From assembly GCA_947572725.1 (NCBI GenBank), contig CANPDB010000003.1:2296-66295 (forward strand): DNA of 64,000 bases. The letters are read 5' to 3'. Of this stretch, positions 32,256-34,763 are shown piece by piece. Within the stretch, counting starts at the first letter, position 1, and every line of letters starts with the position of its first letter. A model generated the notes under the pieces. The model was not told the origin of the DNA. It searched no databases and saw only the letters and a program-made list of their open reading frames with translations. The position numbers and the translations under genes were made by a program. The DNA is from an uncultured Clostridium sp. GTDB taxonomy: Bacteria > Bacillota > Clostridia > TANB77 > CAG-508.

Positions 32256-33185
32256 ATGGAATACATTTCATTAAAACAAGCATCAGAATTATGGAATATA
32301 AGTGAAAGACGAATTAGAAGGCTAATTCAGGAAAATAGAATAGAAGGAGCTATAAAGATAGGAAATGCTTGGAATATACCAATTGATACTAATAAGCCAA
32401 TTGACAAAAGGTATAAAATAGAAGAAGACAAGTTTATTATAAATATTTCCAATGATTTTTTTGAAGAACTAGATGAAAAGAAAGCAATATTAGATAGTAA
32501 AAGACCTTTACCAAAAGAAACATTAAAATCATTAGAAGAAAACTTTAAATTAGAATGGACATATAATTCAAATGCGATTGAAGGAAACACATTAACACTA
32601 AAAGAAACAAAGGTAGTATTAGAAGGAATTACAATTGGTGGAAAAACTATGAGAGAGCACTTAGAAGCTATTAATCACAAGGAAGCAATTGAATTTTTAG
32701 AGGAACTAATAAATGATAATAGCGAACTTTCAGAAATTGATATAAAAAATATTCATGCTCTTGTATTAAAAGGTATTGACGATGAAAATGCAGGAAGATA
32801 CAGAACAGAGAATGTGATTATATCAGGAGCAAGTCACATACCGCCAGAATCTGTAATTGTACCAGAACTTATGGAAAAATTAATATACAGATATGATGAA
32901 TGGAAAGAAAGATATCATCCAATTATTGTAGCAGCCTTATTACATGCAGAATTTGTAAAGGTTCATCCATTTATAGATGGAAATGGAAGAACAGCAAGAT
33001 TACTAATGAACTTTGAAGCTATGAAAAATGGATATCCGCCAATTATAATAAAAACAAAACAAAGACATAAATATTATGATGCTTTAGATAAAGGTGCTAT
33101 GATAGGAAATTATACAGATTTTGTAAGAATGGTTGCGAAACAAGCTGAAGAAATGCTAGATTTATATTTAAAATTAATAAAATAA
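32256..33185 (+). CDS. Fic family protein with N-terminal HTH (class II, internal inhibitory motif)
   Basis: Fic motif HPFIDGNGRTARLL; upstream inhibitory-helix motif SNAIEGN (S/TxxxEG); N-terminal excisionase/MerR-like HTH (LKQASELWNISERRIRRLIQE). Confidence 0.8.
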   Translation: MEYISLKQASELWNISERRIRRLIQENRIEGAIKIGNAWNIPIDTNKPIDKRYKIEEDKFIINISNDFFEELDEKKAILDSKRPLPKETLKSLEENFKLEWTYNSNAIEGNTLTLKETKVVLEGITIGGKTMREHLEAINHKEAIEFLEELINDNSELSEIDIKNIHALVLKGIDDENAGRYRTENVIISGASHIPPESVIVPELMEKLIYRYDEWKERYHPIIVAALLHAEFVKVHPFIDGNGRTARLLMNFEAMKNGYPPIIIKTKQRHKYYDALDKGAMIGNYTDFVRMVAKQAEEMLDLYLKLIK

Positions 33186-33208
33186 TAGTAATATTGGAGA
33201 TGATAAAT

Positions 33209-34261
33209 ATGCACGAATGTATGTTATGCGAAAGGGATATGAAAAAATCAAAAAATCAATTTGGAAATGGTTGTATTAACAATATATTTAAGTTTTTGAA
33301 TATGGAAAAACCATCTAGAGGAAAGAATAAAGAGCAACTTTTATATAGAAATATTATGAATAGGACAAGCATTTCAAGAATTAACAAGGAACAAAAAATA
33401 TGGTTAGCTGATAGATACCTAACATATCAATATTTAGATAGATTACATTATGGAAATTTTGAAAAATTAAAAGAACAGATAAATGCAGATATTGAGAAAG
33501 TTAATCAAGTAGAAAAATTTGAAGAAATGATTACAGCTAGAAAAATGAAACTAAAAGAAGCATATGATTTATATAAAAGAGAAAGAAAATTTGAAGATAA
33601 TCTTAATAAATTAGAAAATAATGACTCTGGAGAAGAGAATGAAAAATTAAAATTATTAATTGCTAGTTTTAGTTATATATTTAATATGTATGGAAACAAA
33701 AATCAATATGAAAAGAGTCATTTCAAAGCAATGCAATACGCATTTTGGCAAACAGTAATTGAAGTTGGTAGAAAATATGCCGAATTTGACATATCTGCCG
33801 ATTTTTTACAACATTCATTAGAAGAAAAACCAGAAGATTTATATATTACAAATGGTAAAGTAGTTGATGAAATAAAAAAGGATAACCAATTTAAAGAAAA
33901 AATTAATAAAATAATAGATGAATATGGAAAAGGAAGAAGACAATTTATTGCTAAAGGCAATGATATTTCTATTTCTTTTAATAATAAAGATTTATACTTT
34001 TCAATCCACAGAGCTAATATGGTTGTAAAAGGTAATAAATATAATGGAAAGTGGGAGGTAGATATTTCATTAGATGATTTATATGATTATTCTAAACCAA
34101 AAGGAATAACAGAATATTACTTTGATACAAAAAGTATTCCTAAAAGTATATTTTCTAGTACCTTATATAATCTAGCAAGTGCTTCTATGAAATTAGGGGT
34201 AATGAAAGAATATATGATTTACATTAATTTTAAAACAAACGAAGATGAGGTGAAGAAATAG
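33209..34261 (+). CDS. hypothetical protein (about 350 aa) with N-terminal Cys cluster
   Basis: N-terminus HECMLCERD...GNGC, then largely helical; no recognisable domain. Confidence 0.5.
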   Translation: MHECMLCERDMKKSKNQFGNGCINNIFKFLNMEKPSRGKNKEQLLYRNIMNRTSISRINKEQKIWLADRYLTYQYLDRLHYGNFEKLKEQINADIEKVNQVEKFEEMITARKMKLKEAYDLYKRERKFEDNLNKLENNDSGEENEKLKLLIASFSYIFNMYGNKNQYEKSHFKAMQYAFWQTVIEVGRKYAEFDISADFLQHSLEEKPEDLYITNGKVVDEIKKDNQFKEKINKIIDEYGKGRRQFIAKGNDISISFNNKDLYFSIHRANMVVKGNKYNGKWEVDISLDDLYDYSKPKGITEYYFDTKSIPKSIFSSTLYNLASASMKLGVMKEYMIYINFKTNEDEVKK

Positions 34262-34262
34262 T

Positions 34263-34763
34263 ATGAATATAAAAAAATGTTTAAAAATACTATTGATATC
34301 CTTATTATTATTGGTTATTATTTATTTAATATATGCATTTACTTTAGAAGAGAGAGTGTTGATGTCAATAGAAATAGAAAATTACATACCAATATTTTCA
34401 AAAATGGATAAAAAAAATACACATGGAGGGGTTCGTAATGAAGGAGAATTGCTAGAAAAGATATATTTTTCAGAAAAACAAGCCAATAATTTTGTGAATA
34501 GATTGAAAGAAAATACTAATTGGAGAGAATTACCTATAACAGAAAGATTGCACAACAAAGTATGTAAATATGCTATGGATGAAGACATGAACATACCAGA
34601 AGTAAGTAATGGCTATTGGTTTATATCAGATAGACATAGTAGAGCAAAAGATAAATACAATTCAGAAGAACTTTTTAATGAAGATAGGCATTCTTATAAT
34701 TTTACAGTAGCTGTATTTGATACAGATTCAAACATTCTATATATTTATGAATTAGATACATAG
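34263..34763 (+). CDS. hypothetical secreted/membrane-anchored protein (166 aa)
   Basis: ATG overlaps the preceding stop. N-terminal signal/TM LKILLISLLLLVIIYLIYAF. Confidence 0.5.
   Translation: MNIKKCLKILLISLLLLVIIYLIYAFTLEERVLMSIEIENYIPIFSKMDKKNTHGGVRNEGELLEKIYFSEKQANNFVNRLKENTNWRELPITERLHNKVCKYAMDEDMNIPEVSNGYWFISDRHSRAKDKYNSEELFNEDRHSYNFTVAVFDTDSNILYIYELDT

Follow-up and report, generated by a model that had tools for sequence, protein, structure and literature searches.

Three genes, encoding a Fic protein, ORF2 and ORF3, lie towards the right end of a 7.1-kb serine-recombinase element, now decayed, which sits within a ZIP transporter gene of a gut Clostridium-like genome (Table 1). Positions are given for the window, the whole 64,000-nucleotide stretch of DNA that was analysed.

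Table 1. The integrative element, its insertion site and its cargo, with positions in the window.
Feature	Position	Strand	Remarks
ZIP zinc-transporter gene, N-terminal half	27295-27751	+	Translation ends ...LHDIPEG at the junction
attL core, 11-bp repeat ACCAGAAGGAA	27741-27751	.	Inside the ZIP transporter gene; exact repeat at both ends
Left-hand cargo	28183-29598	+	DUF2207_C membrane protein 28183-29106; 153-aa membrane protein 29137-29598
Large serine recombinase pseudogene	30606-32178	+	Resolvase part 30606-31232; Recombinase and Zn_ribbon part 31369-32178
Promoter-like TTGACT-18-TACAAT with TG extension	32207-32236	+	Just upstream of Fic; consensus scan
Class II HTH-Fic, 309 aa	32256-33185	+	ATG start; alternative GTG upstream at 32247
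Left boundary of the ORF2-ORF3 cassette	33177-33208	+	~32 bp including the ribosome-binding site; neighbour gene varies beyond
ORF2, 350 aa, predicted toxin	33209-34261	+	Cys knuckle, helical domain, C-terminal toxin domain
ORF3, 166 aa, predicted immunity protein	34263-34763	+	N-terminal TM anchor and ~130-aa alpha/beta domain
attR core, ACCAGAAGGAA	34861-34871	.	Second copy of the 11-bp direct repeat
ZIP transporter gene, C-terminal half	34861-35158	+	Pfam Zip E 2.2e-10 on ORF 34793-35158

The carrier has the recombinase domains, the repeated att core and the inverted arms of a large serine recombinase integrative element. The arms, TGTCTACTTTGG and CCAAAGTAGACA, surround the att cores at 27735-27767 and 34844-34876. 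The N-terminal half of the ZIP gene is homologous to intact ZIP genes in loci L036, L127 and L130, and the C-terminal frame runs on as ...PEGISMAVPM, just as in the intact homologues. The uninterrupted gene in L036 and L130 represents the empty site, and together with the 11-bp direct repeat and the inverted arms it bears out the small integrative element proposed in the preliminary description. Three-frame translation places a 1-nt frameshift that splits the recombinase near 31216-31222; in a tblastn comparison of the intact 513-aa L127 recombinase with the window, the frame changes between residues 204 and 207. The recombinase of L037 is split identically, and the L133 contig holds its C-terminal fragment only. 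The left-hand cargo (Pfam DUF2207_C, E 1.3e-27) is missing from the sister element L127. No Rfam match was obtained in or near the element.

The Fic protein matches Pfam Fic (PF02661) with E 1.2e-22 (80.9 bits vs a cutoff of 24), and its best PDB match is human FICD (E 1.3e-39). The canonical active site recognised earlier is present as HPFIDGNGRTARLL at residues 237-250 (nt 32964-33005), conforming to HxFx(D/E)GNGRxxR. The upstream in-cis inhibitory motif SNAIEGN, also recognised earlier, occupies residues 105-111 (nt 32568-32588) and pairs with TVAIEGN of FICD in a phmmer alignment. Judged by these motifs and scores, the protein can be assigned to the Fic/Doc family and to its class II, inhibited in cis. 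Because the inhibitory helix lies in the same chain, Fic would not need a partner protein. The preliminary description had placed an excisionase-type HTH at the N-terminus; an HTH is found there, but its scores of 24.6 bits for HTH_17 (PF12728) and 20.7 bits for the TIGR01764 excisionase are below the respective cutoffs of 27 and 28.8. Consistent with these sub-cutoff scores, PHROG excisionase and HTH families match the region at 1.7e-06, and the excisionase-type domain appears real but weak. The PADLOC search that had been advised gave a divided answer: Fic matches the models PDC-S04 (3e-39) and SoFic (5.8e-33 over aa 85-311), but ORF2 and ORF3 match none. Fic reaches 29.1 bits with the NCBIfam SoFic equivalog NF046030, far short of the cutoff of 550, which, taken with the PADLOC matches, makes it a relative of SoFic and not an orthologue. 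The nearest Fic orthologue (89%) sits among retron-type and OLD-nuclease defence genes.

The ATG of ORF2 stands exactly 23 nt past the Fic stop, the distance reported before, and is preceded by GGAG 8-9 nt upstream. Its N-terminus reads MHECMLCERD...FGNGC, and the Cys cluster already noticed in this 350-aa protein consists of C4, C7 and C22, invariant in 36 homologues. This Cys knuckle and a helical domain (~1-160) are followed by the putative toxin domain (~160-350), in which D261, W282 and D290-x-Y292-D293 (nt 34073-34093) are near-invariant; D261, D290, Y292 and D293 are conserved at 94-100% among 79 non-redundant domains. The ORF2 family numbers at least 695 cluster representatives, and models that would cover it are lacking in Pfam, NCBIfam, PADLOC and PHROGs alike. 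ORF3 likewise matched no family in Pfam, NCBIfam, PADLOC or PHROGs, in agreement with the earlier view that the two downstream proteins belong to no recognisable family. The ORF2 family profile found 0 matches among PDB sequences. ORF2 has neither a signal peptide nor a hydrophobic N-terminus (maximum hydropathy 0.91) and carries no LXG, RHS or other Pfam domain, nor any known trafficking domain; there are no secretion genes nearby. A scan of IMG/VR contigs recovered no ORF2 relatives, which leaves packaging by a phage-borne or MuF-type route unsupported. Two further candidates for the N-terminal region were rejected: an LXG/T7SS domain, for which there is no Pfam match and no T7SS gene in the flanks, and a double-glycine leader at FGNGC, which the motif does not fit.

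ORF3 has a single N-terminal hydrophobic helix (residues ~8-28, hydropathy 2.8), as expected for the 166-aa secreted or membrane-anchored protein of the preliminary description. The charges K4, K5 and K8 precede the helix and E/E/E follow it, and by the positive-inside rule the globular ~130-aa domain is predicted to face outwards. The AF2 model of ORF3 has a pLDDT of 92. The junction of ORF2 and ORF3 had been described as overlapping at the ATG, but in the window it is TAG-T-ATG, with a 1-nt spacer; many homologues instead overlap by 4 nt.

Do these three genes form one module, as the preliminary description had suggested? A census was taken from both sides. About 32 distinct loci encode ORF2 relatives, and in nearly all of them ORF3 directly follows ORF2, at a distance of -4 to ~+35 nt that in most cases lies between -4 and +4. 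The gene upstream of ORF2 varies: a DUF4143 ATPase in 7 loci, Bro-N in ~7 and Fic in 3, the rest having YhcG, RhuM, AbiEii or no close gene, so that Fic is absent upstream of ORF2 in about 29 of the 32. The first of the three Fic cases is the window, counted with its copy L133 (93% identical); the others are L025 and the second copy in L031. L133 has the same Fic-ORF2-ORF3 trio at 95% DNA identity; the Fics of L025 and L031 are of another architecture (348-359 aa, with a C-terminal winged helix), and at least two Fic architectures thus occur upstream of ORF2. Fic upstream in three lineages and a narrow defence-type set elsewhere are more than chance neighbours would give, and a functional link could lie behind them. 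From the other side, ORF2 or ORF3 was present in 0 of the 80 loci that encode relatives of the window Fic, including orthologues of 86-89% identity.

Comparison of related elements gives the limits of the exchanged segment. L127 and L037 contain the same element as the window with Fic replaced by a DUF4143 ATPase, which in L127, where the recombinase is intact, stands exactly at the place of Fic. DNA homology to the window begins at 33177 for L127, 32 bp before the ORF2 start, and at 33208 for L130, and ends at about 34765, covering only the cassette. The stretch 33177-33208 is common to the window and L013-type loci. Fic, ORF2 and ORF3 are not one system; Fic is best read as an independent neighbour of a conserved two-gene cassette. 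The Fic-centred three-gene module described before has no counterpart on the Fic side, and on the ORF2 side a Fic stands upstream in only three loci, the window among them. With the upstream gene varying and the class II Fic self-inhibited, the idea that Fic has its partners or targets in ORF2 and ORF3 is left unsupported. Of the tight coupling, the part that stands is that of ORF2 to ORF3, but Fic does not belong to the unit. Conservation of the neighbourhood in other genomes had been named as a check on the trio, and by that check the pair is kept and Fic is not, which essentially overturns the proposal.

In L013-type and Bro-N-type loci, a separate promoter stands ahead of ORF2, in the former beyond the stretch shared with the window, and in the window the 3′ end of Fic replaces it. 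With its own promoter lost and the Fic stop adjoining, the cassette is probably co-transcribed with Fic here, and the juxtaposition would be recent. Since promoter-like sites are about as frequent in this AT-rich DNA as expected (66 vs 65), the site in front of Fic is proposed only as the likely promoter of the three genes.

The relatives of ORF2 give an indication of what the cassette may do. An exhaustive profile search recovered ORF2-domain tips that match ORF2 ~160-346 with E 1e-16 to 1e-21. The region corresponding to ORF2 ~160-350 directly follows the RHS core-end motif (..YDPxxGRF..DPSGL) in P0276, P0311, P0273, P0283 and P0300, and P0276 also carries RHS_repeat (1.8e-16). In P0284 and P0290 this domain comes after a signal peptide, and in P0314 after PG_binding_1. 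In each of these RHS-tip, signal-peptide and PG_binding_1 relatives, the next gene encodes a small protein that has a transmembrane helix at its N-terminus; the ORF3 HMM found no homology with the downstream proteins of the RHS-tip loci, and only the architecture is alike. In locus L126, orphan RHS tip-immunity cassettes stand in an array. Between L013-L016 and the window, the ORF2 N-domain has 79-85% identity, which falls to 40-50% beyond residue ~215 and to 30% in ORF3. ORF3 diverges faster than ORF2, and its divergence tracks the ORF2 C-terminal domain (Spearman 0.69) over the N-domain (0.46). From these comparisons the pair appears to be of the polymorphic toxin type, with a tip shared with RHS/YD proteins and a small co-diverging gene downstream; the secretion or trafficking domain or signal peptide that is also expected of such toxins is absent from ORF2 itself. 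The undescribed conflict system suspected in the preliminary description thus has a plausible counterpart in ORF2-ORF3, and the presence of the domain on RHS tips points to interbacterial antagonism over Fic-linked defence.

The predicted fold of the ORF2 toxin domain resembles the lipid II-degrading domain of colicin M/DUF3289. In a structural comparison five independent colicin M/DUF3289 structures were recovered, with 135-164 aligned residues each, and the remaining structural matches covered only 55-115, mostly helical residues. The elements of ORF2 come in the same order as those of colicin M, with an NGxW turn in a beta-hairpin first, then DDxYD[FY], a helix and a G..EY.I strand. A local profile alignment places NGKW..DDLYDYS..KEYMIYI of ORF2 on NGSW..DDKYDFN..KEYQILL of colicin M, which holds for an alignment forced on the C-terminal tails (E 0.019, probability 2.5%). 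The colicin M signature is DxYD(x5)HR, in which D226 binds metal (PMC8469651). ORF2 reads D290-L-Y-D293-Y-S-K-P-K, with H and R missing at +6/+7, and the K at +5 is not retained by the RHS-tip relatives. The three invariant Asp residues would fit a metal-dependent hydrolase. Pfam Colicin_M (PF14859) and DUF3289 had no match on ORF2 at E<=0.1; hhalign gave no significant result (probabilities of 0.1-0.4%), either for the ORF2 family against colicin M alone or for a toxin-domain profile broadened to 79 sequences and compared with 12 aligned colicin M sequences, and a Foldseek search of the PDB with the ORF2 model returned nothing below E 2. The putative link between ORF2 and colicin M is one of fold and motif only and is weak in sequence. 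DUF3289, which is homologous to colicin M, has membrane immunity proteins (PMC11148199, PMC12135965), and in Cmi, the immunity protein of colicin M, an N-terminal helix serves as the anchor (PMC8469651). ORF3 and Cmi have no similarity in sequence or fold.

We consider it fairly probable that two independent units stand here side by side: a self-inhibited Fic and a colicin M-like toxin-immunity cassette, ORF2-ORF3. The first would be a class II HTH-Fic, probably an AMP-transferase of the FICD/SoFic type, which needs no partner and may travel between genomes as single-gene cargo. For the second, the most likely activity of ORF2 would be metal-dependent cleavage of lipid II or a related undecaprenyl-pyrophosphate-linked precursor, acting on the external side of the membrane of competitor cells. 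ORF3 would then bind and neutralise ORF2 outside the cell and so protect the producer, by analogy with Cmi/colicin M and TipC/TelC.

A toxin-immunity pair whose likeness to colicin M is coincidental, and which has some other envelope target such as membrane damage or peptidoglycan or teichoic acid intermediates, seems unlikely to us. The negative profile and Foldseek comparisons and the missing HR residues agree with this reading, and the example of TelC shows that unrelated folds occur among lipid II phosphatases and that an immunity protein anchored outside does not single out one target (PMC5555719, PMC6193138). Against it stand the five colicin M/DUF3289 structures with their much longer alignments, the same order of elements and the three Asp residues suited to a metal-dependent hydrolase.

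It is quite improbable that ORF2-ORF3 is a constant anti-phage or abortive-infection effector for which the upstream gene serves as an exchangeable sensor or regulator. The upstream genes do form a narrow defence-island repertoire, many of them 25-75 nt before ORF2; the flanks hold RhuM, a RelA_SpoT toxin with Panacea antitoxin, and TerB; and the arrangement DUF4143 ATPase-ORF2-ORF3 recurs in seven lineages, in one of them between an intact ZIP gene and pcrA without a recombinase. However, the cassette genes are without PADLOC match, the IMG/VR contigs have no ORF2 relatives, the place upstream of ORF2 in L001, L020, L021, L024, L026 and L036 is taken by an unrelated gene or by none close by, and ORF2 of the Bro-N loci has its separate promoter. 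Secreted RHS use and outside-anchored partners fit interbacterial antagonism better than intracellular phage sensing.

That Fic, ORF2 and ORF3 are one defence or addiction system, with Fic as the effector and the downstream proteins as partners, regulators or targets, is hardly credible: it would account for the 23-nt and 1-nt spacing without a terminator behind a single promoter-like site, the repeated trio in L133, Fic directly before ORF2 in L025 and the second copy of L031, and the PADLOC matches of Fic, but the two-sided census (0/80; ~29/32 without Fic) largely refutes it, as do the DUF4143 ATPase in the same element of L127 and L037, the different architecture of the L025 and L031 Fics, auto-inhibition in cis, the separate ORF2 promoter of Bro-N-type loci and the use of the toxin domain on RHS tips without Fic.

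With two units side by side as the preferred reading, the Fic-centred three-gene defence picture gives way to a testable alternative, and for the ORF2 family an annotation becomes available, that of a polymorphic toxin domain whose immunity partners are membrane-anchored. The locus also illustrates cleanly how one cassette replaces another in integrative elements that are homologous elsewhere. We put forward only tentatively a wider proposal, in which the ORF2 family might be the first lineage of colicin M-type toxins in Gram-positive bacteria that degrade lipid II, a lineage widespread among the Clostridia of the mammalian gut. Surface-anchored immunity proteins of a new class would neutralise it, and its cassette would lie at a serine-recombinase exchange hotspot, with single-gene defence cargo (Fic, DUF4143 ATPase, Bro-N, RhuM, YhcG, AbiEii) exchanged ahead of it. 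As ORF2 has no signal peptide, a so far undescribed route of export or release may be used, possibly via the Cys-knuckle/helical N-domain. Should the colicin M-like activity prove real, the enzymatic destruction of lipid II by this fold would reach Gram-positive gut anaerobes, in which lipid II is an exposed, clinically validated target.

Each of the two units has parallels among known systems. Human FICD/HYPE and the Clostridioides difficile Fic, both of class II, have the same (S/T)xxxE(G/N) inhibitory helix N-terminal to the same active site as the window Fic; in contrast, where FICD has a TPR domain and membrane anchor, the window Fic has its excisionase-type HTH. SoFic and PDC-S04, whose PADLOC models it matches, are single-gene defence candidates.

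The C-terminal domain of ORF2 is homologous to the tips which in RHS/YD polymorphic toxins follow DPxGL and precede membrane-anchored proteins, and in both cases the N-terminal part recombines away from the tip and the immunity gene. Unlike RHS toxins, ORF2 is a stand-alone protein of 350 aa with its own conserved N-domain, and it lacks the RHS shell, a signal peptide and a recognised trafficking domain.

With the colicin M family and DUF3289 (immunity proteins Cmi, PmiA-C and DUF943) ORF2 shares DxYD[FY] after a beta-hairpin, an immunity gene directly downstream and reuse of the domain in polymorphic toxins. ORF3 resembles Cmi in its small size and N-terminal helix, a predicted anchor that would leave the domain outside. 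The described colicin M/DUF3289 effectors are Gram-negative, whereas the host of ORF2 belongs to a Gram-positive Clostridia lineage, and in place of their TonB-box/receptor domain or T6SS adaptor ORF2 has the Cys knuckle and helical N-domain.

TelC-TipC of Streptococcus intermedius, in which TelC is a T7SS LXG lipid II phosphatase, differs in fold and in its aspartate-rich motif, with no detected homology, and ORF2 is without LXG and has no T7SS genes nearby. What the two systems would have in common is a Gram-positive host and the proposed destruction of lipid II outside the membrane, with the immunity protein displayed on the external side of the membrane, as TipC is and as ORF3 is predicted to be.

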